Positions 17,114 to 29,709 are shown, numbered from the stretch's first letter. The stretch is 64,000 nucleotides of DNA from Promethearchaeota archaeon (GCA_048938105.1 JBHLMN010000012.1:128001-192000); one strand, 5' to 3'. Made by a program: numbers and translations. The notes: generated by a model not told the origin, from the letters alone.

Positions 17114-17698
17114 TTGGATAAAATGCTCTTAGAAATTCCATCAATGATAGAGACCAAACAATTAATCATCAGAAAGTACAAAAAAGGTGATGGGATGCCA
17201 CTTCTTGAATTATTTGAAAGAAACGATAATCGTGAGCATCTAAAAGATCATGTGTATGAAGCATCCACTATAATGACCCAAGAAGAGGCAGAAATTAGAG
17301 TTAGGCGTTTTATTGCCTCTTGGGTCGCACGAAAGAGATTTGTTTTGGGTGTATGGTTAAAAGCTTCGAACCTATATATTGGCCAAATCTGGATCGAACC
17401 CAAAAAATGGGAAGTTCCCTCATTCGAGCTGGGATGGTTTTTAGACCGATCTTATCAGGGACAAGGATTAGCAACAGAAGCAGCGAGAAGAGCAATTGAA
17501 TTTCTTTTTAATGATTTGAAAGCTCATAAAATCATCATTTTAACTCGTGATGACAATGTGAGAAGCTATAAACTAGCTGAAAGATGTGGATTTACCAAAG
17601 AAGGGTATCTTAAGGATCATGGTATTAAAAATGGTAAAAGATATGGGTTATTTTGCTACAGGTTGTTAAAACCCGACTATAAAATCAAAAATGACTGA
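17114..17698 (+). CDS. GNAT N-acetyltransferase, RimJ/RimL family
   Basis: ELGWFL..YQGQGLATEA, N.RS.KLAERCGF.KEG. Confidence 0.9.
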   Translation: MDKMLLEIPSMIETKQLIIRKYKKGDGMPLLELFERNDNREHLKDHVYEASTIMTQEEAEIRVRRFIASWVARKRFVLGVWLKASNLYIGQIWIEPKKWEVPSFELGWFLDRSYQGQGLATEAARRAIEFLFNDLKAHKIIILTRDDNVRSYKLAERCGFTKEGYLKDHGIKNGKRYGLFCYRLLKPDYKIKND

Positions 17699-17761: not shown

Positions 17762-18703
17762 TTAGCTTAATATTTCAATTAATTTGACCAAATCCTCTTT
17801 ATTGATGGCAACAACATCTGCTTCAGGAAATATATTGCGGTTGTTTTCTGAAATTCCCTGTCCTCCGATTGCAATACGAATTTGGTTTTTGAAAACATTA
17901 TGTAAATACTCTAAATTTCGTTTAAGAGTACCAAGATATAACGGAAGGGTAATGGAGATAAATATCCAATCAGGTAATTCAGGAAGATCTTTGATATATT
18001 TGATTAAGGATTGGATGGGTAAAGCTCGCCCCAGATTAATAATCTTGTAATTTAAATCCCGAAGAATATATTCTAAGGCAAATAAACTGAGAACATGTCT
18101 TTCACCTTCTACAGGTACTAAAATGATAATTCCTTTTTCCTCTATATTTTCATTTACTGGTATTCTTGCAACGATTAGCTCTTCAACGCGATTAGAAATA
18201 ATGTGTTCTTCCGCAGTTGAAAGATTCGCTTGAGCCCATTGTACACCGACCTCATGCATTAGTGGTGTGATAAAATCAACAATAAAGGGTGTACTATTAG
18301 GAAACATTGATTCTATGTTTACTGAGAACTCCTCAACATCATAATTTGATGATTTCAGATATCTGATCATTTCTTGTATGGAGGCTAATTTTAAAACAGA
18401 GGGTTTTTCTATTCTTCCTTTCTCCTCAGGCTTCTTCTTTTCTTTTAATATCTCATTCTCATGTATATATAGTTCTTTGATTAGATCATCAGTTAAATAT
18501 ACAACAGTATACCGCCCCCGTTTAAGTGGGCGTCGTTCGATTTCGATATAACCTTGTAAATTTAGTTCTTTTATGGCATTAGAAATTGTTGAACGTTTAA
18601 GATCTAAATTGGATGCAAGTTCAGAAACAGGGACTTCCCTTCCGCGATTTTGCCTTAAGTATCGAAAAATACGATCTCTGGCTGGTAATTGGACATTTTC
18701 CAT
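17762..18703 (-). CDS. Cobalamin-binding transcriptional regulator: winged HTH plus CarH/LitR-type four-helix cap and B12 Rossmann domain
   Basis: wHTH VSELASNLDLKRSTISNAIKEL; W-x9-EH (WAQANLSTAEEH); E-x-H (GERHVLS); NLG..LP, ISIT, IGG; adjacent to crtB. Confidence 0.85.
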   Translation of the reverse strand: MENVQLPARDRIFRYLRQNRGREVPVSELASNLDLKRSTISNAIKELNLQGYIEIERRPLKRGRYTVVYLTDDLIKELYIHENEILKEKKKPEEKGRIEKPSVLKLASIQEMIRYLKSSNYDVEEFSVNIESMFPNSTPFIVDFITPLMHEVGVQWAQANLSTAEEHIISNRVEELIVARIPVNENIEEKGIIILVPVEGERHVLSLFALEYILRDLNYKIINLGRALPIQSLIKYIKDLPELPDWIFISITLPLYLGTLKRNLEYLHNVFKNQIRIAIGGQGISENNRNIFPEADVVAINKEDLVKLIEILS

Positions 18704-18716
18704 AAGGCATTGTTAC

Positions 18717-18749
18717 CTTCTTATTGATATTCTTATGATTTCTTCATGA
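18717..18749. promoter_or_regulatory. Three imperfect tandem 11-bp direct repeats just upstream of the CarH-like gene
   Basis: cttcttattga / tattcttatga / tttcttcatga. Confidence 0.35.
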
Positions 18750-18772: not shown

Positions 18773-19717
18773 CTAAAGTTTACGAAGGTACTCTAAACGT
18801 ACTTTAGTTGCCAAAATAATCTTTCTTAGTTTAGAAACAACTGCCCGTTGATTTAATATTTGATAATCAATTCTTTTTATCTCATTTAGAATTTCCCCAT
18901 AGACTCTTGAGGCCACTTTTACAGTATAAGCTCCTGCAGGTGGTAATTCCTCAATACCAAGATCAGCTATCTTATAAAGAGCTTTCGCTCGCTCTGATTC
19001 GTAACGAATGAGTGATTTGAGGTTCTCATTCACTTTATCACCCCTTAGATCCTCAATCGTAACCTGATAATCATTCCGAGTTTCTTCTGGTAGATATATT
19101 CGCCCCTTGAGGAAATCCTCTTTGATATCTCTTAATATATTGGTTAATTGCATTGCTCTACCTAGATCTGCAGCTCGTGCTAGAGTTCGTTTTTCTGGAT
19201 TTTTGATGAAGATGTGAGTCATCATTAAACCAACAGTACTTGCAACCCGATACATGTATAAGTCAAGTTCTTCTTCTGAATAGTACTCGGTTTTTATAAG
19301 ATCCATTCTCACACCTTCTATAAGCTCATGCATGTAATTAACTGGAATTTGATGTTTACGTAACGTATCTCCAAAGGCATGAAGGATAGGATTTGTAGAG
19401 CTATATCCATTGGCCAATTTTGTTATAGTACTTTTCAATCGATCAAGTTCAAAATTAATCTTATCAATCGTAATCCCCTTAGGGGCTTCATCAACTATAT
19501 CATCACTTAAACGACATATAGCATAGAGAGCAGCAACGCTTTTACGCTGATCTTCAGGTAAAAATCGACTAGCGAAATAGAATGACTTGCTATGCTCTAT
19601 CATCCAGTCTAGACAGATTTGATAGCTTTCTTCAAGTGTTTCATCCATCAAACTATGTTTAGGTGTCGTACTTTTGGGAAGAAGTTCCCAATCAATTGTT
19701 TTGTGAGTTGAATACAT
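18773..19717 (-). CDS. crtB: Phytoene synthase
   Basis: SKSFYFAS, YAICRLSDDIVDE, YRVASTVG, QLTNILRDIKED..GRIYLP. Confidence 0.95.
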   Translation of the reverse strand: MYSTHKTIDWELLPKSTTPKHSLMDETLEESYQICLDWMIEHSKSFYFASRFLPEDQRKSVAALYAICRLSDDIVDEAPKGITIDKINFELDRLKSTITKLANGYSSTNPILHAFGDTLRKHQIPVNYMHELIEGVRMDLIKTEYYSEEELDLYMYRVASTVGLMMTHIFIKNPEKRTLARAADLGRAMQLTNILRDIKEDFLKGRIYLPEETRNDYQVTIEDLRGDKVNENLKSLIRYESERAKALYKIADLGIEELPPAGAYTVKVASRVYGEILNEIKRIDYQILNQRAVVSKLRKIILATKVRLEYLRKL

Positions 19718-19739: not shown

Positions 19740-19841
19740 TTCATGAATTAGTTCAACTTCATGAATAAACATTTAAATATTTTTCGAATGTAGGTAATCA
19801 ATCAAAAAAGTGTCATTTGTCAAGTAGACATTACTTTTTTG
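19740..19841. promoter_or_regulatory. Divergent crtB/crtI promoter region with palindromes
   Basis: TTCATGAA at 19740-19747 and 19758-19765; TTTAAATA at 19772; 9-bp inverted repeat CAAAAAAGT (19803-19811) / ACTTTTTTG (19833-19841). Confidence 0.5.
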
Positions 19842-19852
19842 GATAAATAAAA

Positions 19853-21436
19853 GTGAGAAAAATGAGTAATGGACATAATAAACGTAATATAGCCTTTGAT
19901 AATAAAAACCCTGAAACGTTTCTCGAATCAGTGGTAATTATAGGCTCTGGGATTGGTGGACTGGCGGCGGGAATACGCCTTCAGACAACAGGAAAATTTA
20001 ATGTTACTATTATAGAAAAACTAGACCAAGTTGGTGGTCGGGCCAGAGTCTTTAAAGATCAAGGGTTTACTTTTGATGGAGGTCCTACGGTAATAACTGT
20101 ACCTGACATTTTTAAGGATTTATTTACTTTACCTGGTCGAAAAATGGAGGATTATGTCGAATTAATACCAGTGGAGCCGTTTTATCGAATCCATTTTAAC
20201 GATGGGACATTTTTTGATTATTCTACTCCGGAAAAAAATATACCTCAAATTGAAAAAGTAAATCCTGAAGATGTAGAAGGATATAAACGCATGCTTAAAG
20301 CAGTTCGACCGATCTACGAGAAGGGGTTCAAAGAATTATCATTTAAACCTTTTAACAAGTTTACTTCAATGCTTAAAGTAGCTCCCTCCCTCATCAAGTT
20401 ACAATCATACCGTTCAAATTATAAATTTGTCTCTAAATATATAAAAAATGAGAATCTCCGAATGGTATTTAGTTTTCACCCTTTACTTATTGGGGGGAAT
20501 CCTTTCTCGGTTCCATCAATTTATAGTCTTATTCAATACCTGGAAAAAGAATTTGGAGTTTGGTTTGTGCGTGGTGGTACAAATGCTTTAGTTCAGGCGT
20601 TAGCAAACTTATTTGAGGAGCTTGGGGGTAAAATCATTTTGAATAGTGAGGTTAAAAAAATTGAAGTTAAAGATAATCAAGTAGAGGGCGTTTTAACTGT
20701 TTCGAATGATTTTTATCCAAGTAAAATCGTAATAAGTAATGCTGACCCCGCTTTTACATACACAAAAATGATTGATGCAGAGTGGCGCAGGAAAAACAGT
20801 GATAAGCGTTATAAAAAAGCGAAATATTCTATGGGATTAGTTGTAATTTATTTTGGAACGAAAAGACAATATCCAAATATGAAACATCACACTATTATTT
20901 TGGGTCCCCGGTATAAAGGACTAATAGAAGATATTTTCAAGAAAAAGATTTTAGCAGAAGATTTTTCGAGCTATTTACATCTCCCCACTCGGACTGATCC
21001 AAGTTTAGCTCCTGAAGGACATGAAGCCTTTTATATCCTGATTCCCGTCCCTCATCAAGATTCTGGTATTAATTGGGAAGAAATGGCTGAACCATTTAAA
21101 CAACGAATCTTTGATTTTCTGAATGAAAATTATCTCCCTGAACTAAAAGAGAACTTAGTGACAGAGCGAATTTTTACTCCTCTAGATTTTGAACGAGACT
21201 ATAATAGCTTTAAAGGATCTGGTTTTTCTGTTGAACCAATTTTTACTCAATCAGCGTGGTTCCGTCCACATAACAAATCTGAAGATATTGATGGTCTTTA
21301 TTTAGTGGGTGCTGGAACCCATCCAGGAGCAGGATTGCCTGGAGTTGTCTCCAGTGCAAAAGTAACCACAGATTTGATCATCAATGGGAAAAATGGATTT
21401 TCAAAAAAACCCTCTGGAATAAGTAATGCTAATTAG
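19853..21436 (+). CDS. crtI: Phytoene desaturase (CrtI family); ATG 19862 is an alternative start
   Basis: IIGSGIGGLAAG, FDGGPTVIT, FHPLLIGGNPF, WFRPHN...LYLVGAGTHPGAGLPGV. Confidence 0.95.
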   Translation: MRKMSNGHNKRNIAFDNKNPETFLESVVIIGSGIGGLAAGIRLQTTGKFNVTIIEKLDQVGGRARVFKDQGFTFDGGPTVITVPDIFKDLFTLPGRKMEDYVELIPVEPFYRIHFNDGTFFDYSTPEKNIPQIEKVNPEDVEGYKRMLKAVRPIYEKGFKELSFKPFNKFTSMLKVAPSLIKLQSYRSNYKFVSKYIKNENLRMVFSFHPLLIGGNPFSVPSIYSLIQYLEKEFGVWFVRGGTNALVQALANLFEELGGKIILNSEVKKIEVKDNQVEGVLTVSNDFYPSKIVISNADPAFTYTKMIDAEWRRKNSDKRYKKAKYSMGLVVIYFGTKRQYPNMKHHTIILGPRYKGLIEDIFKKKILAEDFSSYLHLPTRTDPSLAPEGHEAFYILIPVPHQDSGINWEEMAEPFKQRIFDFLNENYLPELKENLVTERIFTPLDFERDYNSFKGSGFSVEPIFTQSAWFRPHNKSEDIDGLYLVGAGTHPGAGLPGVVSSAKVTTDLIINGKNGFSKKPSGISNAN

Positions 21437-22260
21437 TGGAAGAAATTGTAATGTTAACATATTTCATCTTCCTCCTTTTCTTTATTGTTATACCTTTGAT
21501 GGTAATCAGTTTTTTTTATTATAAGAAATATCGTGGAGGGGAAGAATATCAAAAAACGATGATAAAAAAAATCTTAATTGTGTTAGCGATATTAATAATT
21601 GTAGCTATTACTTATACTACTCCATGGGATAATTTTCTCGTCGAAAATGGCATTTGGTATTATGAGACATCGAAAGTTATGGGTATTTTAATTGGTTTTG
21701 TACCCATTGAAGAATATGGCTTTTTCGTATTGCAGACTCTCTTTATTGGATTGCTATTCGGATGGATTCTGCTTCATAGAAAGAAAATCAGTCATAATCA
21801 GAATAATTTTAGAGTTAATTTACGCCTGATTTCAGCGATTGGGCTACTTATTGTTTGGATTGTAGGATTTCTTGCATTTATTAACAGAATAGAAACTTTA
21901 ACTTATCTGAATTTAATCCTTTTATGGGGAATACCTCCAATAATGATTCAACTGATCTATGGCGCTGATATTCTCTGGTTGTACAATCGAGACCTTATCT
22001 CAGTCATCTCTCTCTCAACTATTTACTTAGCTATTGCAGATACTATTGCGATTGCAGATGGAATCTGGACAATTAGTATAAATACATCAACAGGGATTCT
22101 TTTGGCTGGAGTTTTACCTATTGAAGAGTTTGTCTTTTTCTTGGTCACTAATATATTAATTACTTTTGGATTAACCTTAATGATTGATTCTAGGAGTATT
22201 GATAGATTTCATCAATACTTTTCTAGATTAAAAGAACACAAGTGGAGAAATAAGTTATGA
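21436..22260 (+). CDS. crtY: Lycopene cyclase, fused two-domain CrtYc/CrtYd membrane type; start may be ATG 21451
   Basis: Two cyclase repeats: PWDNFLVENGIW...VPIEEYGFF and ADTIAIADGIW...LPIEEFVFF. Confidence 0.9.
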   Translation: MEEIVMLTYFIFLLFFIVIPLMVISFFYYKKYRGGEEYQKTMIKKILIVLAILIIVAITYTTPWDNFLVENGIWYYETSKVMGILIGFVPIEEYGFFVLQTLFIGLLFGWILLHRKKISHNQNNFRVNLRLISAIGLLIVWIVGFLAFINRIETLTYLNLILLWGIPPIMIQLIYGADILWLYNRDLISVISLSTIYLAIADTIAIADGIWTISINTSTGILLAGVLPIEEFVFFLVTNILITFGLTLMIDSRSIDRFHQYFSRLKEHKWRNKL

Positions 22261-22377: not shown

Positions 22378-22830
22378 ATGTTAAATAACGTAATAGAATA
22401 TCTTAATGAGTCTGTAATACCTTTGCGGCTTTCTGGTACCACTAAATCAGGCTGGCCATTTGTAATGAGCCTTTGGTATGTTTATTTAAATGAAAAAATT
22501 TACTTAGCAACTATAAAATCAGCTAAAGTCGTTGATTATCTTTCTAATAACCCCAAATGTGCTTTTGAAATTGCCAGTGATACTCCACCTTATTGTGGGA
22601 TTCGAGGACAAGCAATGGCAAAAATTATTGAATCTAAGGGGGATGAAATTCTAAAAATCCTTCTAAATCGTTATCTAGGAGGAGAAAATAGTCCTTTAGC
22701 CCGAAGACTGTTGAATCAACGTATACCAGAGGTTGCGATTGAGCTTACTCCTGTTAAAGTGTATCAATGGGATTATAGTAAGCGAATGATTGACTCGATT
22801 GAATTTTCTTCAGTTAAAAAGTGTCCATAA
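22378..22830 (+). CDS. Pyridoxamine 5'-phosphate oxidase-like flavin-binding protein
   Basis: PLRLS..TKSGWPFVMSLWY, NPKCAFEI..D.PPY.GIRGQ. Confidence 0.8.
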   Translation: MLNNVIEYLNESVIPLRLSGTTKSGWPFVMSLWYVYLNEKIYLATIKSAKVVDYLSNNPKCAFEIASDTPPYCGIRGQAMAKIIESKGDEILKILLNRYLGGENSPLARRLLNQRIPEVAIELTPVKVYQWDYSKRMIDSIEFSSVKKCP

Positions 22831-22867
22831 ATAAGAACGATAAAAAAACCAGTAAAAAGGTGATATT

Positions 22868-23287
22868 ATGTCAGATATCAAATATTCTGCTGGAGTATGC
22901 AATATCGGTGACGCTGAAATAAAACAAAGACGTCGATTAGGATATATAGGCATTGGTCTTACTGTGATAGCAATTATTGTATATTTAGGATTGATTTATT
23001 CTATAAAATTAGATCCATTCTTTGGAGTGATTATTTTCATACCTGCTGAAATGTCAGCTATTGGGTTAATTCAAGCTAGGAACAAATTTTGCGCTGCTTA
23101 TGGATTGATTCACCAACAGAACGTTTCCTCAAGCTTAGGCTTAACTGTGAAAATAGGCAATAAAAATTCCCAGAGAAAGGATAGGAACAAAGCTCTTAAA
23201 ATTATTTTTCAATCCCTAGTAATTGCGATTATCATTACTGTTTTTACAGTTATTGGAGGGATTTTGATAGCTCAAAGTATTATTTAG
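22868..23287 (+). CDS. Small membrane protein with CNIG..E..RR and KFC motifs, function unknown
   Basis: Three hydrophobic helices, two Cys; AGGTGA SD. Confidence 0.7.
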   Translation: MSDIKYSAGVCNIGDAEIKQRRRLGYIGIGLTVIAIIVYLGLIYSIKLDPFFGVIIFIPAEMSAIGLIQARNKFCAAYGLIHQQNVSSSLGLTVKIGNKNSQRKDRNKALKIIFQSLVIAIIITVFTVIGGILIAQSII

Positions 23288-23376
23288 GTTTGAATATAGG
23301 TTGAAAAAAAGCATAAGAGATAAATATGAATCAAATCAATATACTCAATCTTAGGGAGAGGATTTTTCCTACTCCA

Positions 23377-24114
23377 TTAAAAAATTCGTCCTAGTGACGC
23401 GTCTAAGATTTTTCCAGTCATTAGAGGAGTAGTTGCAGCAAATTCTATCATTTCATTCAAATCCTTAGGTAATAATGGGTAATTAAGAAGCTGTTTTGAT
23501 ATTAATTTCGATGATAGAACCTCAATTGTTGTACCATTATCCATAGATTTCTTTTCCAATTCTCTATTATGTCGATCCGTAAAAACATATGTAGGAGAAA
23601 CTCCGTTAATTCGAATTTTGGGAGCCAAAACTCTAGCCATTGTACGAATTAAATAGACTAATCCAGCTTTCGCAACTCCATAAGGCATTTTATCCAATGA
23701 AGGTTCATAAGCAGCAGAACTAACGATATGTACTATAGCTCCGCCTTCTATCATAAGTTCAGCTGCCATTCTTGTTAATAAGAAAGCAGATGTTAGATTC
23801 ACATTTATTACACGATTGAAAAATGAAGCATCCACTTCTAATGGATTTTTTGAAGCCAAGGATCCCCCTATATTATTTATCAGAATGTCTATTGATCCAA
23901 TTTTAGTCTGTACCCATTTCTTTACCTTTCTAATTCCTTCCTCGGTTGTGCAATCAGCTGCAATATTATTAATTCCTGGAAAACGATCATTTATCATATT
24001 TAGACTGGATATGAGAACCTCATTATTCTGATTAGAAAGTTTTCTCATAATTGCCTCTCCAATCCCTCCAACAGCAACACCAGTAACTAGAATTTTCTTA
24101 TTTTCGATGATCAT
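23377..24114 (-). CDS. Classical short-chain dehydrogenase/reductase
   Basis: TGVAVGGIG, LINNIG, SS, YGVAK (YxxxK), IRINGVSP. Confidence 0.9.
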   Translation of the reverse strand: MIIENKKILVTGVAVGGIGEAIMRKLSNQNNEVLISSLNMINDRFPGINNIAADCTTEEGIRKVKKWVQTKIGSIDILINNIGGSLASKNPLEVDASFFNRVINVNLTSAFLLTRMAAELMIEGGAIVHIVSSAAYEPSLDKMPYGVAKAGLVYLIRTMARVLAPKIRINGVSPTYVFTDRHNRELEKKSMDNGTTIEVLSSKLISKQLLNYPLLPKDLNEMIEFAATTPLMTGKILDASLGRIF

Positions 24115-24159
24115 GATTAATTTCCTCAGTTATGTTGTTAATGGTTTAATTTATTACAT

Positions 24160-24648
24160 CTAGTCATCTATTTTCAGAGTTTGAGTTTTAAGTAATTTAT
24201 AATTTTTAGGAAATCCCCAATCTTCAATCTTATTGTAACTTGTTTTTTTTGATCGAAAATGTACCCATATTGTTGTACTATCAAGAAGTGGATTAGCATG
24301 GTAATGCTTTTGATCACCATATCGAAAAGCTTCTAGTACTAGGGGTAATTCCTGACGAAAAATTCTATCACGAAACTTTAAAGGGCCAATTCCCCCACTT
24401 ACTTGACAATAGACATGGAGTGAATATACATTTTCGGTTTTCAACCATTCAGCTAACACTTCATCCCGCATTATCCGTGTTTGCCATCCTTTTAGTTGTT
24501 TTTTGTTAAACTCATGGGCAATGGTGAGAAATAAATCTCCTGTCCGATCTGAATGGGTTAATGTATAGCAACGAGGTACTAGAGGAGAATCAATGGTTGT
24601 TGGGGGTATAAATGTAACATTTAGTTTATTTGGGTTTAAGCGATTCAA
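24160..24648 (-). CDS. STAY-GREEN (SGR, Mg-dechelatase family) homologue
   Basis: PRCYTLTHSDRTGDLFLTI, GWQTRIMRDEVLAEW, LHVYCQV, IFRQELPLVLEAFRYGD, WVHF.S...YNKIE.WG. Confidence 0.92.
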   Translation of the reverse strand: MNRLNPNKLNVTFIPPTTIDSPLVPRCYTLTHSDRTGDLFLTIAHEFNKKQLKGWQTRIMRDEVLAEWLKTENVYSLHVYCQVSGGIGPLKFRDRIFRQELPLVLEAFRYGDQKHYHANPLLDSTTIWVHFRSKKTSYNKIEDWGFPKNYKLLKTQTLKIDD

Positions 24649-24674
24649 GGTAGAAATCCTTCTATTTGAAAGAA

Positions 24675-26177
24675 CTAAGTTGTAGATAAATAATAGGGCT
24701 TAGGAGTAGAGCTTATTTTAGTATATGTAAGACTATCTCCAGGAATATCCCTACAAATTTCCTCTAACAGCTTTTTTGACAGCATGTCGAAAAATGGTTG
24801 GATCATAAACCAATAGGCTATCCCAATAAGCCCTTTTGGGACTATTCGAAAAATCTGATGAAGTTCAATTTTTTTGTGATTAATACGCCTTAAACGATAT
24901 CTTAGGATGGTATAACCAGGTAAGATGAAATCTGTATGTAATGTTAATTCTTTCTTTGGAATTTTATTCTGAATTGAAAGAGGAGTCTTTTTCATCTCTC
25001 CCTTGTCCTTAAAACCTTTGAAAAAACCGTTTAGAAAAGCACCAAATTTCCATAAGTATAAATTGATCTGAAAATTTCTATATTTCTCAATCTGAAGTAA
25101 TTTGTTCCACAAATTCTCAGGATTACTAGTTAAAATAGCCTTACGATGATCTTGGAAGACAAATCCTCCAGACCAGGATGGATCCCCTGGAATGTGCCAT
25201 TCAACGGGTAAATCATAATAGCTAGAATAACTTCCGTACCTAAGATACTGTTGGGGGTTTAATGCTAATCGAATTGCTTGTTTATGGTTTAGTAACTTCT
25301 GTGGAATCAATTCTCGTATCCTAAAATCATGACAAACAACCTCATTCTTCATTCCATCTATTAATGGACGAGCTAAAGATGATTGAATGCCTGTAATCAA
25401 TCTTATCCAATAGGAGCTTAGGCTAGGAGTGAAGAAAGGGATAGGGAGAATTAAACGCTTTGGTAGTGCCATAATTTCCACATAACTCTCCATAAACTGT
25501 TTATAAGTGATAATATCTGAACCACCAATATCAAAGGTCTCACCGATTGTTTCTGGTACATCTAAACAGTCAGTTAGATATTTCAGAACATTTCGAATAG
25601 CTATTGGTTGATTTCTTGTTCTAAGCCACTTGGGTGTAATCATAATTGGCAATCTATTGACTAGATACCTCATCATCTCAAAAGCTGCGCTTCCACTCCC
25701 AATAATAATTGCTGCACGTAACGTTGTAACTGGTACTGAACATGAATTCAGTATTCTGGAAACTTCGATTCGAGACTGTAGATGCTTACTTAATTTTTCT
25801 TTTTCGTCCCCTAATCCCCCAAGATAAATAATTCTTTCAATTGCTGCCTTTTCAGCTGCAATTATTGTGTTTTGGGCTGCAATTCTATCAGATCTAATAA
25901 AATCTTTTATTTTTCCTTCCATAGAATGGATTAAATAGTAAACCGAGGAGACTTCTTCCATTGCGTCTTCTAAGGTTTTAATATCGAAAACATTAAGATT
26001 TACCGTTTTCAAATTCCTATGATGACTCCATAATCTCATATTTAGCTTGTCTTTTGACCTAAACCCCACTCGTACAATATATCCTTTCTTTAAGAGTTTT
26101 GGTACAAGTCTGGAACCTATGTAACCTGTGGCCCCAAGTACAAGAACTTCTTTTTGTTTCAAGGGAAATCTACTCAT
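24675..26177 (-). CDS. Atypical SDR/NAD(P)-binding protein with C-terminal DUF2867-like domain (YbjT-like)
   Basis: GATGYIG, YYLIHSM, IIYLGGLG, SKHLQSR.EV, LRAAIIIGSGS; C-terminal PKGLIG.AYW. Confidence 0.88.
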   Translation of the reverse strand: MSRFPLKQKEVLVLGATGYIGSRLVPKLLKKGYIVRVGFRSKDKLNMRLWSHHRNLKTVNLNVFDIKTLEDAMEEVSSVYYLIHSMEGKIKDFIRSDRIAAQNTIIAAEKAAIERIIYLGGLGDEKEKLSKHLQSRIEVSRILNSCSVPVTTLRAAIIIGSGSAAFEMMRYLVNRLPIMITPKWLRTRNQPIAIRNVLKYLTDCLDVPETIGETFDIGGSDIITYKQFMESYVEIMALPKRLILPIPFFTPSLSSYWIRLITGIQSSLARPLIDGMKNEVVCHDFRIRELIPQKLLNHKQAIRLALNPQQYLRYGSYSSYYDLPVEWHIPGDPSWSGGFVFQDHRKAILTSNPENLWNKLLQIEKYRNFQINLYLWKFGAFLNGFFKGFKDKGEMKKTPLSIQNKIPKKELTLHTDFILPGYTILRYRLRRINHKKIELHQIFRIVPKGLIGIAYWFMIQPFFDMLSKKLLEEICRDIPGDSLTYTKISSTPKPYYLSTT

Positions 26178-26189
26178 TCTAAGAGGACA

Positions 26190-26960
26190 TCAATAATCTT
26201 GACGAGCTTTCCAGAAATCACCATAAAAGAAAAATCCAATCAGTTGAGAAAATACGAATATTATTGATATAACTATTCCTAAATACTGTAATATAAGAAT
26301 TTGATTACTATGGAAGATATACAGAGGGATAAAGTTCAATAAGAACCAAATCCACGAAAGAATTGGAGCAGATATGAACATAAGAGATCTTTTCCATTTT
26401 GAAACAGATAAGAAGGAACTCAAATCATATTTTATTCCAAAAATAGGAAGTTTCGTTATAGGTGTCCAAGCTAGCAAGTTTGATTTACGAAATGTGGATT
26501 TGAAAATAAAATAATTTCTAAAGTTTAATCCTAAAAGAAAACCAAATATGCAATGGATTACGGTATGAGAGAGCATAAAGTTTACAAAACTGATTAGAAA
26601 GAACAAAATAACACTAAACCAAAAATCTACAGAAAAATAAAAGGCTAAAAAATAAAGAATTTCTGAGATGAGAACACCAACTGAGAATAGTAAAGTTCCG
26701 ACTTTAATTGAAAATTTTGGAACGTTCCAACTATCGAAGAAGAATTCATCAATTCTCCCTAAAATATCTATTTCTTCCTCTGTTATTTTTACTTTTCGTG
26801 CATATTTTACAGCAGTTTGATATTTTCTCCAATGACTCTTCCGATTTAATGTTCCTGTTTCATATGAATCCTCTAAATCCTTGATATTCCTACTAAAATT
26901 AGTGTTATCCATTTGAGAACCTTCCCTAGAACTGTAGTTCTTATTAGTTATACTTAACAT
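26190..26960 (-). CDS. Orphan membrane protein with HxxxH motif; start may be ATG 26912
   Basis: Four to five TM segments, SHTVIH, ISAP, terminal YGD; co-oriented directly downstream of the heliorhodopsin. Confidence 0.7.
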   Translation of the reverse strand: MLSITNKNYSSREGSQMDNTNFSRNIKDLEDSYETGTLNRKSHWRKYQTAVKYARKVKITEEEIDILGRIDEFFFDSWNVPKFSIKVGTLLFSVGVLISEILYFLAFYFSVDFWFSVILFFLISFVNFMLSHTVIHCIFGFLLGLNFRNYFIFKSTFRKSNLLAWTPITKLPIFGIKYDLSSFLSVSKWKRSLMFISAPILSWIWFLLNFIPLYIFHSNQILILQYLGIVISIIFVFSQLIGFFFYGDFWKARQDY

Positions 26961-27019
26961 TATAATTCTAGTGATCGAGGTTTGAAAATAAAAAGAGGGG
27001 AAGGATCATAATGACCCAA

Positions 27020-27832
27020 TTAAGCAAATATTAACCCCATAAATACAATCCAAGCTAATGCTGATTTTGCAAAGAGGCTTAATAATTGATAACCTCGTTC
27101 TCCATATAGATAATCTTTCCATGGGCCTATTTTCTTATACTGAAGAAACATATTCAAGGCAAAGCTGTTAAAGAAGACGAAATAAACTACTAAGGCAATA
27201 TAGACAAAAGTAGGAACTTCTCGTCCAACTGTGTTAATACTCAAGAATGTATCAAGGATGACGATCCAGGGCATTATTCCAGCTATCCATCCTAGGATAT
27301 AAGGAGCCCAGCTTGTTTTTTCAGTATATTGGTTATAAGTCTCCATTAACAACCCAAACATGTTCATTAATCCATTAAGCACGAATATCAGAGCAAGAAT
27401 CCAAAATTCTAGTATTCCAAAAGCTAAAGCAATGAATATGATCATCACTGAACTGGAAAAAGCATACTCATACCAACGTACTGGATTCATTTCTTTCTTT
27501 AAATTGGTAACATATTTGTTATATAATGGAAAAGCAATCAGTAAATGAGCAATAGCTGACATTAGAAGAAAACTAGCAAGCAGGATACCTGCAATGTTTT
27601 CAAAAGTGAAAAAAACTTCGGGGATAGGCTCAAGAACTGGACGAGTACCAGTTAATTCTTTTATTCCTAAATACGACCTATAAATGTCGATTTTGAAGTT
27701 TTTTATTTCATCAATTACTAAACTCAGAGCAAATATAACTGTTGCTTGCACTAAGTGCAAGATACCCATGGCTATATTGAATTTCCGGAGATAGGAAAAT
27801 GATATTTTTGACTTTTCAATGTTAGTTGACAT
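27020..27832 (-). CDS. heR: Heliorhodopsin
   Basis: LRKFN..MGILHLVQA, SAIAH, NPVRWYEYAFSSS (counterion Glu), MNMFGLLME, YLYGERGY..LSLFAKSALAW (retinal Lys in SLxAK); AGGAGG SD. Confidence 0.97.
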   Translation of the reverse strand: MSTNIEKSKISFSYLRKFNIAMGILHLVQATVIFALSLVIDEIKNFKIDIYRSYLGIKELTGTRPVLEPIPEVFFTFENIAGILLASFLLMSAIAHLLIAFPLYNKYVTNLKKEMNPVRWYEYAFSSSVMIIFIALAFGILEFWILALIFVLNGLMNMFGLLMETYNQYTEKTSWAPYILGWIAGIMPWIVILDTFLSINTVGREVPTFVYIALVVYFVFFNSFALNMFLQYKKIGPWKDYLYGERGYQLLSLFAKSALAWIVFMGLIFA

Positions 27833-28051
27833 TAAGCAACCTCCTATGGATTTAGACAGAAGAGTCCTTCTTTATATATTCATTATGATAATTAAAACGT
27901 AAATCACCAATAAATCTAGATCTAGAATTAATGACTTGAATCAGGATGAAGTTCTATTACTGAAAAAATAAAGAATCTATTATAATGTGAACCTAAAACT
28001 TGCTGATTGATGAACTAGTACTTCTAAAATCACAAAGAATGGTGAAGGCTG

Positions 28052-28828
28052 ATGTCTCTTACAAAACAAAAACAATTTTTGATTTATGGTAACATCTTGA
28101 GCTTTTTATTAACTATCGTGATGAATTCTTTAGCCAACATCCTTCCTTTGAATGGAAAAACAACTGCAGAACTCAGTGACTCTTTCCCTAACTTATTTGT
28201 CCCCGCTGGGTATGTTTTTAGTATCTGGGGATTGATCTACATTTTATTAGCAATTTTCACGGTTTCCCAAGCCCTTCCCAAGTATAGAGAGGAGGATGTT
28301 ATTGAAAAAATCTCCTATTTCTTTATTATAAGCAATCTGGCTAATTCATCATGGATTGTATTTTGGCACTTTGAAATAATAATCGCATCCTTATTGGTTA
28401 TGTTGATACTCCTTGTATCTTTAATACTAATCTATACCCGATTAGAAATTGGAAAGAAGCCCGTGAGTGAAAAAATTAAGATCACTTCTCATATCCCATT
28501 TAGTGTTTACCTGGGATGGATTACTGTTGCAACTGTTGCAAATGTTACAGCTTTACTTGTATCAATAAACTGGGATGGTTTTGGCATAAGTGAAGTCATC
28601 TGGACTGCAGTTGTAATAAGTGTTGCAACAATAATTGCACTAGTTATCGTATTCACCCGGAAAGACTATGCCTACGTTCTTGTCCCCGTCTGGGCTTTTA
28701 TAGGAATAGCAGTAAAGCAATTAAATACTCAAAACGATGTTGTTATAATTTCTGTTATAGCAGCAGTTATTTTAGTCATAACATTGCTTGTTAGACTTTC
28801 ATTGGATTTAGTTCAGAATCGAAAATGA
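28052..28828 (+). CDS. TspO/MBR-related tryptophan-rich membrane protein
   Basis: NSLANILP.NG.T..ELSD..PNLFVPAGYVFSIWGLIY, N.SW..FWH, PFSVYLGWITVAT. Confidence 0.8.
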   Translation: MSLTKQKQFLIYGNILSFLLTIVMNSLANILPLNGKTTAELSDSFPNLFVPAGYVFSIWGLIYILLAIFTVSQALPKYREEDVIEKISYFFIISNLANSSWIVFWHFEIIIASLLVMLILLVSLILIYTRLEIGKKPVSEKIKITSHIPFSVYLGWITVATVANVTALLVSINWDGFGISEVIWTAVVISVATIIALVIVFTRKDYAYVLVPVWAFIGIAVKQLNTQNDVVIISVIAAVILVITLLVRLSLDLVQNRK

Positions 28829-29709
28829 ATGATAATAATTTTAGATCACTAATTACTTCACTCATAATAATATGCATTGCTGCATGTCTTGCACTCATTG
28901 GTAGCCACAGGGGTATAACTGTTTTTGGTGGAATACCAGTATTTGCACTTGGAGTAGCTATTGCCTTTATAATTCAATGGATTGCGTTTATACCTGCTTA
29001 TATCAAAAGAACAGAGAAATTTTTCGATTTGACTGGCTCTTTGACTTACAGTATTGTGATTATTTTTTCAGTTGTTTTGAGTTCTGAAATCAATATACGA
29101 TCTATTTTACTGATGTTTTTGGTCTTGATCTGGGCGATTCGCCTTGGTATGTTCTTGTTTAGGAGAATACTGAAAGAGGGTGAGGATAAACGCTTCAAGG
29201 AAATCAAAGAATCAGGTTCGCGTTTTCTATTAACTTGGACTCTTCAAGGTTTGTGGGTTAGCTTTACATTAGCAGCTGCATTGGCTGCGATCACAGTAAA
29301 ACAGAGGGTAGAATTTGGCGTCTTTGGTTTAATTGGTCTTCTGGTTTGGATCATAGGCTTTGGATTTGAAGCTGTTGCAGACTATCAGAAGAGTAAATTC
29401 AGATCTATTCCTGAAAACAAAGGAAAATTTATTACTACTGGATTATGGTCGATATCACGACATCCCAATTACTTTGGAGAGATCCTCCTATGGATCGGTA
29501 TTGCAATCATTGCACTTCCAACACTTCAAGGTTGGAGATGGCTAACACTAATTTCTCCTATTTTTGTCACATTATTATTGACCAAGGTTAGTGGTATTCC
29601 ATTACTTGAGAAACATGCAGATGAAAAGTGGGGTGGTCAGGAGGAATATGAGCAATACAAAAGTAAGACTCCAGTATTAATCCCAAGGCCATTCTTCAAA
29701 TCAAATTAA
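28825..29709 (+). CDS. DUF1295 / steroid 5-alpha-reductase-like membrane protein
   Basis: FFDLTGS, WAIRLG, EDKRF, WTLQGLW, ADYQK, GLWSISRHPNYFGE; ATGA overlap with the upstream gene. Confidence 0.9.
   Translation: MNDNNFRSLITSLIIICIAACLALIGSHRGITVFGGIPVFALGVAIAFIIQWIAFIPAYIKRTEKFFDLTGSLTYSIVIIFSVVLSSEINIRSILLMFLVLIWAIRLGMFLFRRILKEGEDKRFKEIKESGSRFLLTWTLQGLWVSFTLAAALAAITVKQRVEFGVFGLIGLLVWIIGFGFEAVADYQKSKFRSIPENKGKFITTGLWSISRHPNYFGEILLWIGIAIIALPTLQGWRWLTLISPIFVTLLLTKVSGIPLLEKHADEKWGGQEEYEQYKSKTPVLIPRPFFKSN

Follow-up and report, generated by a model that had tools for sequence, protein, structure and literature searches.

We examined a 64,000-nucleotide stretch of DNA (the window) from a Promethearchaeota archaeon (GCA_048938105.1, JBHLMN010000012.1:128001-192000), with a focus on its gene for a STAY-GREEN (SGR) protein and the light-related genes around it. 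The SGR gene (24160..24648, minus strand) has a TTG start and encodes a 162-aa Staygreen-family Mg-dechelatase homolog, assigned by PF12638 and by sequence and fold matches to the structure 7Y5Y. It is the fourth of five minus-strand genes in the order HeR, memB, NmrA+DUF2867, SGR, SDR. The first encodes a 270-aa heliorhodopsin (HeR; 27020..27832; PF18761, E 2.4e-85; the solved HeR 6IS6, E 3e-61), the sole one in the genome, and is followed by memB (26190..26960), encoding a multi-pass membrane protein of no Pfam family. Next comes a 500-aa protein in which an NmrA-like NAD(P)-binding domain is fused to DUF2867 (24675..26177; NAD_binding_10, E 3.9e-14; NmrA, E 2.1e-11; DUF2867, E 5e-4), and the last gene of the run, beyond SGR, encodes a classical short-chain dehydrogenase (SDR; 23377..24114; adh_short, E 1.8e-31). 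The host is a non-phototrophic Asgard archaeon of the Hodarchaeales with a 5.85-Mb genome (99% complete, 33% GC), and close homologs and loci of its SGR are named Candidatus Hodarchaeota or Hodarchaeum, as well as Hermod-, Heimdall-, and Promethearchaeota.

By sequence, SGR is a full-length and intact Mg-dechelatase homolog of the SGR family that is under purifying selection. PF12638 covers residues 4 to 150 (profile positions 2 to 147 of 147; E 5.5e-49; 166.2 bits, cut-off 27), and 7Y5Y, the only solved relative, aligns over residues 1 to 152 (E 1e-45); the identity is approximately 55% in the sequence alignment and 49% when the structures are aligned. The N terminus is in register with the M-x-R-L-x-P starts of aligned homologs. 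An AlphaFold2 model (pLDDT 82, pTM 0.79) matches 7y5y_A in Foldseek (E 1.9e-20, TM 0.86/0.92, rmsd 2.1 Å), with no PDB chain apart from 7Y5Y reaching E 0.001 in that search. The initial annotation had recognized the gene as an intact SGR-family member from its signature motifs. Each of the motifs occurs in the protein (CYTLTHSD, residues 27-34; GWQTRIMRDEV, 54-64; RDEVLAEW, 61-68; YGD, 110-112), and the Pfam profile, the 7Y5Y sequence alignment, and the predicted fold uphold the assignment. Among Hodarchaeales SGR orthologs, pairwise dN/dS ranges from 0.07 to 0.20, and the gene is thus maintained by selection. Its GC content is the same as that of its flanks.

The protein of structure 7Y5Y, AbSGR-h from Anaerolineae bacterium SM23_63, removes Mg from chlorophylls a, b, and c, chlorophyllide a, and protochlorophyllide a in vitro, with low substrate specificity (PMC11006732). 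Its mutagenesis showed D34 and D62 to be essential and the H32 mutant to be weakly active, with R26, Y28, T29, and D114 having structural roles (PMC8531759; PMC11006732). In the window SGR, H32, D34, and D62 occupy the same positions as in AbSGR-h and are invariant in two alignments of 20 and 25 relatives. R26, Y28, T31, R61, E63, and D112, the last being the counterpart of D114 in AbSGR-h, are also invariant among the aligned relatives, and T29 is present and at least 90% conserved. The window SGR also keeps T31, R61, E63, and R95, mutation of which broke the reported hexamer of AbSGR-h.

Remnants of further SGR genes were observed in this lineage. The host genome carries a second, decayed copy (G000:C39:223443-223562; L002:1501-1647), of which approximately 49 C-terminal residues are left, 65% identical and interrupted by two TAG stops. 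A complete Hodarchaeales chromosome has a second locus (L016; G009:C1:1541565-1544723) with the gene order winged-HTH-B12 regulator (44%), PNPOx-like protein (54%), SGR fragment, and CrtI (55%), and the SGR remnant therefore lies inside a B12-regulator/carotenoid cluster; the fragment is an N-terminal stretch of 59 aa and has Q in place of H32.

Within the five-gene run, the gaps measure 59 bp between HeR and memB, 12 bp between memB and NmrA+DUF2867, 26 bp between NmrA+DUF2867 and SGR (24649-24674), and 45 bp between SGR and SDR (24115-24159), the last two as initially annotated. That annotation had also described SGR as forming an apparent operon with heliorhodopsin, and this holds in part: the HeR is genuine and shares the strand of SGR, but the two are not adjacent, being separated by two genes and by a T-rich tract, CTTTTTATTTT, in the 59-bp gap after HeR. 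This tract is possibly an archaeal terminator, as read from its sequence. Because of these two intervening genes and the tract, cotranscription of HeR and SGR in the window is only plausible, and memB, NmrA+DUF2867, SGR, and SDR form a tighter unit than the run including HeR. The region past SDR (23288..23376), read directly, contains a hairpin and a T7 tract, convergent with the gene at 22868-23287, and is likely the end of the transcription unit. A scan of positions 22800-28200 for promoters and terminators of the bacterial type, which does not reach archaeal promoters, gave counts equal to the shuffled expectation.

As for the partners of SGR in this run, HeR has K256 and E122, which we take to be the Schiff-base lysine of TM7 and the counter-ion, and both are invariant in an alignment of 25 SGR-linked HeRs. 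Of the 80 loci surveyed below, 10 have an NmrA+DUF2867 homolog no more than 5 kb from SGR, often directly adjacent to it, and SDR orthologs are found 0.7 to 4 kb from SGR in four other Hodarchaeales loci. The N-terminal domain of the NmrA+DUF2867 protein is NDUFA9-like. Searches of the PDB by sequence returned NDUFA9-like matches only for this protein and generic SDR matches only for SDR, and we consequently set aside any specific role for either. An ortholog of memB was found in one other genome only (L024/L029). Pfam gives no match for the memB product, even when relaxed to E 5; among named atlas clusters, DUF3267 and Peptidase_M50 come nearest (0.80-0.81), to be taken as a lead only, and the memB product carries HTVIH in place of the HExxH of those peptidases.

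The association of SGR with HeR recurs well beyond the window. In three other Hodarchaeales genomes, HeR lies directly upstream of SGR on the same strand with gaps of 43 to 54 bp; the gene order of the window is repeated in a fourth, and HeR is found approximately 2 kb from SGR in two more. At the genus level, SGR was recovered from 11 of 20 genomes. We sampled 300 Asgard genomes evenly; 74 contained SGR, 87 contained HeR, and 51 contained both, against approximately 21 expected. In 17 of these 51 genomes, SGR and HeR share a contig and are no more than 5 kb apart, and in most of the others they are on separate contigs, where the distance is unreadable. A second Asgard family shows several arrangements of the pair: codirectional adjacency, divergent pairs 250 to 830 bp apart, or a spacing of 2 to 4 kb. 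Of 250 Anaerolineae genomes, counted with the seed genome excluded, 10 carry SGR, 39 carry HeR, and 8 carry the two together, where 1.6 would be expected; HeR and SGR lie within 5 kb of each other in seven of these eight genomes and are directly adjacent in six. By our own arithmetic, which assumes random placement in genomes of approximately 3.7 Mb, chance proximity of the two genes would be expected in approximately 0.3% of genomes. Where HeR and SGR are adjacent on the same strand, the gaps measure 16 to 90 bp in the Hodarchaeales, the second Asgard family, and the Chloroflexota. On the SGR tree, HeR-linked members turn up in four or more deep clades, and the linkage state changes no fewer than 12 times. 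In the literature searched, we found no report of the HeR-SGR pairing and no paper containing both "heliorhodopsin" and "dechelatase", and the recurrent pairing appears to be unpublished.

HeR is one of several recurrent neighbors. We took 80 loci from species genomes, grouped every open reading frame within 5 kb of SGR into clusters, and used Pfam to name these. Photolyase is present at 24 of the 80 loci and an AhpC/TSA peroxiredoxin at 18, followed by MFS transporters (13), ABC exporters (12), heliorhodopsin (11), and, after the NmrA+DUF2867 protein given above, CrtI-like proteins (9), MerR+B12-binding regulators of the CarH/LitR type (8), and DegV (6), with UvdE, DUF1295, and TspO-like proteins at 4 loci each. 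In Thorarchaeota and Hermod-type genomes without HeR, SGR is found beside peroxiredoxin, photolyase, and crtB/crtI. The theme common to the SGR neighbors is light sensing, UV repair, defense against reactive oxygen species (ROS), and carotenoids. The initial annotation had suggested a light-regulon context and had staked its reading on recurrent linkage of SGR with light-response genes; such linkage is what we observe, with SGR beside HeR, photolyase, peroxiredoxin, crt, TspO-like, and CarH/LitR genes in both Asgard archaea and Chloroflexota.

In the window, genes of the same theme flank the run on both sides. Divergent from HeR, across an intergenic region (27833..28051) whose sequence, read directly, has a TATA-like element, ATATATAAAG, and GGAGGT before the ATG on the HeR side, lies a gene for a TspO/MBR-like membrane protein (28052..28828, plus strand) with a weak family match (PF03073; E 2.3e-6; 27.9 bits, cut-off 24). 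Homologs of this protein (44 to 53% identity) are located within 10 kb of SGR at 8 of the 80 loci and recur near SGR in Chloroflexota. It overlaps by 4 bp a gene for a DUF1295/steroid-reductase-like membrane protein (28825..29709, plus strand; PF06966, E 2.1e-70), a family found within 10 kb of SGR at 10 of the 80 loci. At 258 aa, the TspO-like protein is longer than a typical TspO and matches the family only over residues 49 to 167, and a sequence search of the PDB with it gave no match.

On the other side of the run lie carotenoid genes and a candidate light-responsive regulator. CrtB, a phytoene synthase, is encoded on the minus strand (18773..19717; SQS_PSY, E 1.7e-73), and a phytoene desaturase of the CrtI type (19853..21436; Amino_oxidase, E 2.1e-36) and a candidate lycopene cyclase, a membrane protein (21436..22260; Lycopene_cyc, E 0.012, below cut-off), are encoded on the plus strand. 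A 39% identical homolog of the candidate cyclase belongs to a crt cluster beside SGR at another locus (L064). The regulator (17762..18703, minus strand), a candidate archaeal CarH-like photoreceptor, combines a winged helix-turn-helix (HTH_11, E 1.6e-7) with weak B12-binding matches (B12-binding, E 1.1e-5, 25.7 bits, below the cut-off of 32.1; B12-binding_2, E 1.8e-3). It contains Wx9EH at residues 156-167 and ERHVLS, in which H203 is a candidate axial histidine; we take Wx9EH and an axial histidine to be the motifs of CarH photochemistry. The arrangement resembles the adenosylcobalamin-dependent CarH/LitR light regulons of non-phototrophic bacteria, which take in carotenoid, photolyase, and related genes, in that crtB/crtI of the window stand beside a regulator with a candidate B12-binding module bearing Wx9EH and a candidate axial histidine. 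It differs from them in that the N terminus of the window regulator matches the winged-helix families HTH_11 and MarR_2 and is an archaeal winged helix, not MerR, in that the Pfam B12-binding match is below cut-off, and in that no operator was identified before the HeR-SGR run.

The host cannot build tetrapyrroles. We found no ALAD, porphobilinogen (PBG) deaminase, or CobN/Mg-chelatase in its genome, and ALAD, which is present in 18 of the 300 Asgard genomes, is absent from all 74 SGR-bearing ones. Any tetrapyrrole substrate of SGR must therefore be exogenous, and chlorophyll-type Mg-tetrapyrroles from food or decaying phototrophs are the likely substrates. Of the sources initially proposed, scavenged chlorophyll derivatives are left standing, while endogenous Mg/Zn-porphyrins find no support in the enzyme inventory; we reject an endogenous Mg-porphyrin substrate on the grounds that our searches of the host genome did not recover the core tetrapyrrole enzymes and that ALAD is missing from all SGR-bearing Asgard genomes in the sample.

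The cross-domain pairing of HeR and SGR, the light-defense islands, and the lack of tetrapyrrole synthesis in the hosts lead us therefore to the hypothesis of a light-triggered handling of diet-derived chlorophyll. In our judgment, SGR is probably part of a light and photo-oxidative-stress island in the non-phototrophic Hodarchaeales, where it would demetallate diet-derived chlorophyll pigments. This island, as we would tend to draw it, comprises HeR, memB, NmrA+DUF2867, SGR, SDR, the TspO-like and DUF1295 proteins, crtB/crtI and the cyclase, and the CarH-like B12 regulator. Diet-derived Mg-chlorins lodged in the membrane would act as photosensitizers in the light, and the island would be expressed or activated via the CarH-like regulator, HeR, or both. 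SGR would then take off the Mg through its H32/D34/D62 site, a reaction that its Anaerolineae relative, approximately 55% identical, carries out in vitro. This would be a first step of disposal in illuminated cells, coordinated with carotenoid synthesis and with HeR as light sensor. The products of neighboring genes might then deal with the Mg-free chlorin: the TspO-like protein could bind it, NmrA+DUF2867 or SDR could reduce it, or it could be exported. Carotenoids would quench singlet oxygen in parallel.

Several observations weigh against this proposal. HeR is absent within 5 kb of SGR at 37 of 63 decidable loci, and in one Asgard family 10 of 19 genomes have SGR but none has HeR, so SGR does not need HeR; in the window itself, HeR and SGR are parted as described above. 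The genomes behind the Asgard and Anaerolineae counts are akin and phylogenetically nonindependent, so that p-values overstate the association, and the f14 loci were picked for being linked. Pheophytin and pheophorbide are themselves photosensitizers, and Mg loss alone does not end photosensitization. In addition, we found no PaO domain (PF08417) in the host genome and no ring-opening enzyme for the Mg-free product. Finally, the activity of tested prokaryotic SGR homologs is reported to be highly variable (bioRxiv 10.64898/2026.03.19.712979).

The role of HeR in this setting allows for a more specific mechanism, which adds to the proposal of pigment demetallation without excluding it. By analogy with what is reported for HeR with glutamine synthetase, photolyase, and an ABC exporter, HeR may act as a regulatory helper rhodopsin with SGR as its client: it would bind SGR at the membrane and, in light, switch or boost its activity; we regard this as rather unlikely. 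The HeR partners described in the literature were all chosen from the same operon (PMC9529153, PMC9769723, PMC11109279), and both the same-strand adjacency of HeR and SGR in three lineages and their co-occurrence in genomes far above expectation would fit such a relationship. Staygreen is not among the ten groups of the published classification of HeR neighbor genes, and SGR would represent a new partner class. Against a client relationship stands the frequency of SGR in genomes without HeR, best seen in the Asgard family with 10 and 0 of 19 genomes. The variable orientation of the pair (codirectional, divergent, or 2 to 4 kb apart) suits coregulation as well as binding. No HeR-SGR fusion was recovered either: a search for longer SGR proteins, in itself a weak search, gave three, none of them with HeR. 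Extended to the whole run, the same idea would yield a light-gated pigment-disposal module, in which illuminated HeR would bind SGR at the membrane and switch on Mg removal from scavenged chlorophyll pigments only once these turn dangerous, and NmrA+DUF2867, SDR, and the TspO-like protein would process or sequester the Mg-free chlorin, an extension that we likewise hold to be doubtful.

Somewhat less probable still is that chlorophyll dechelation is a promiscuous side activity, and that the native substrate is another metallated or photoreactive cofactor linked to light stress, or that SGR is a pigment-binding or pigment-handling factor for the neighboring reductases. The literature on the characterized enzyme calls the bacterial activity promiscuous and its physiological role unknown, and AbSGR-h has a low substrate specificity (PMC11006732). 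Besides HeR, the most constant direct neighbors of SGR are the redox proteins NmrA+DUF2867, SDR, and peroxiredoxin, and the hosts make no tetrapyrroles. However, the catalytic residues of the proven dechelatase are invariant in 45 aligned relatives, the window SGR has the same predicted fold as that enzyme, genes of the TspO-like, tetrapyrrole-binding family recur near SGR, and no result obtained here points to another substrate.

It is very improbable that the context of SGR has no functional meaning and reflects a shared history of transfer within a laterally mobile light island: the patchy distribution of SGR (11/20 in the genus, 74/300 in the phylum, and 11/251 in Anaerolineae), its decayed copies, and the changes of linkage state on the SGR tree would be in line with such mobility, but the pairing persists at 45 to 55% protein identity across two domains and several gene orders, SGR is under purifying selection with a GC content uniform with its flanks, and its neighbors are coherent in function (light sensing, UV repair, ROS defense, and carotenoids) rather than mobile-element genes.

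The proposed demetallation of chlorophyll pigments can be set beside known systems. AbSGR-h (PDB 7Y5Y; PMC8531759, PMC11006732) is the nearest characterized enzyme, with a similar length (161 compared to 162 aa) and with identical residues at H32, D34, D62, R26, Y28, T29, T31, T36, R61, E63, and the aspartate of YGD. The window SGR differs by a two-residue deletion after the GG motif and by its Asgard archaeal host, and it is known here from sequence and a model. A light-gene neighborhood is not described in the AbSGR-h texts searched, and a 2026 preprint cataloging prokaryotic chlorophyll catabolic enzymes is without rhodopsin context (bioRxiv 10.64898/2026.03.19.712979). The operons of HeR with glutamine synthetase (PMC9529153), photolyase (PMC9769723), and the OmrDE ABC exporter (PMC11109279) likewise have HeR followed by a same-strand gene for a soluble enzyme, recurrently across taxa, and the window HeR keeps their conserved lysine and glutamate. 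In contrast to them, two extra genes stand between HeR and SGR in the window, and the association is known here from the genes. The placement of SGR with HeR and light-defense genes is a variation on the known theme of HeR partners and light regulons.

Plant SGR1, SGR2, and SGRL, which feed the PAO/phyllobilin pathway, share with the window SGR the Pfam family, the catalytic motif, and the presumed removal of Mg from chlorophyll a or chlorophyllide. Unlike in plants, the substrate is not self-made in this host, where ALAD, PBG deaminase, and Mg-chelatase were not found, and no PAO was found to continue the pathway. In addition, the window SGR has half the length of plant SGR, lacks the transit peptide region, and belongs to a light-stress island, not to senescence. 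The initial annotation had further held that this gene bears on the origin of plant SGR, a view that our tree does not support. In that tree, the Hodarchaeales SGRs form a clade (support 99) that has the other Asgard SGRs as its sister group (support 91). The one eukaryotic SGR compared (P0121), 36% identical to the window SGR, sits on a long unsupported branch nearest to Chloroflexota rows and is not specially close to the Hodarchaeales clade. The finding by itself says nothing new on where plant SGR came from.

All of our functional claims rest on gene context. Within that scope, the role of SGR in non-photosynthetic prokaryotes and the function of most HeRs, two open questions, are joined here in one hypothesis that can be tested at the bench. 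The finding also suggests that phototoxic pigments taken in with food are a burden which heterotrophs of sediments and mats have to deal with, among them the Asgard lineage closest to eukaryotes. If the light-gated module were true, HeR would gain a new class of clients and prokaryotic SGR a native role. Eukaryotic grazers are known to detoxify chlorophyll, and the module would then be the counterpart of this in archaea and bacteria.

Further genes and sequence features were observed in and around the island. Between the candidate cyclase and SDR lie plus-strand genes for a small PNPOx-like flavoprotein (22378..22830; PNPOx_N, E 5.3e-4, below cut-off), orthologs of which are found in the same island in four other Hodarchaeales loci, and for a small membrane protein of no Pfam family, memA (22868..23287), which is syntenic with the island in Hodarchaeales genomes and has homologs near SGR in seven Hodarchaeales loci. 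The divergent crtB/crtI intergenic region contains two exact copies of TTCATGAAT 18 bp apart (19740-19748 and 19758-19766), and a copy with one mismatch is located at 18743, between the regulator and crtB. Judged from its sequence and position, the doubled TTCATGAAT may be an operator. We also looked for an operator shared with the SGR run: the doubled motif lies only in the crtB/crtI intergenic region, no clear copy lies upstream of HeR or the TspO-like gene, and its 57 matches across the window, where 56 would be expected, show no enrichment.

A Blh/BCD-type beta-carotene dioxygenase, as a source of retinal, was not found in the host genome despite the presence of HeR, crtB, crtI, and the candidate cyclase; the control genomes were silent too, so this result is uninformative. 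The photolyase FAD-binding domain was also not found in the 99% complete host genome, and photolyase is the commonest neighbor of SGR in other loci, including five of nine Hodarchaeales loci. Elsewhere in the host genome, an archaeal 16S rRNA match (G000:C9:1695-3919; L003) extends over 2225 bases compared to 1478 model positions, and the gene thus appears to carry an insertion of approximately 750 bases, possibly an intron. Finally, the window encodes a GNAT acetyltransferase (17114-17698, plus strand) with homologs (56 to 58% identical) approximately 3.5 kb upstream of SGR in five loci (L045, L048, L058, L069, and L125), which are of the Thorarchaeota or Hermod type and have a peroxiredoxin gene directly before SGR.

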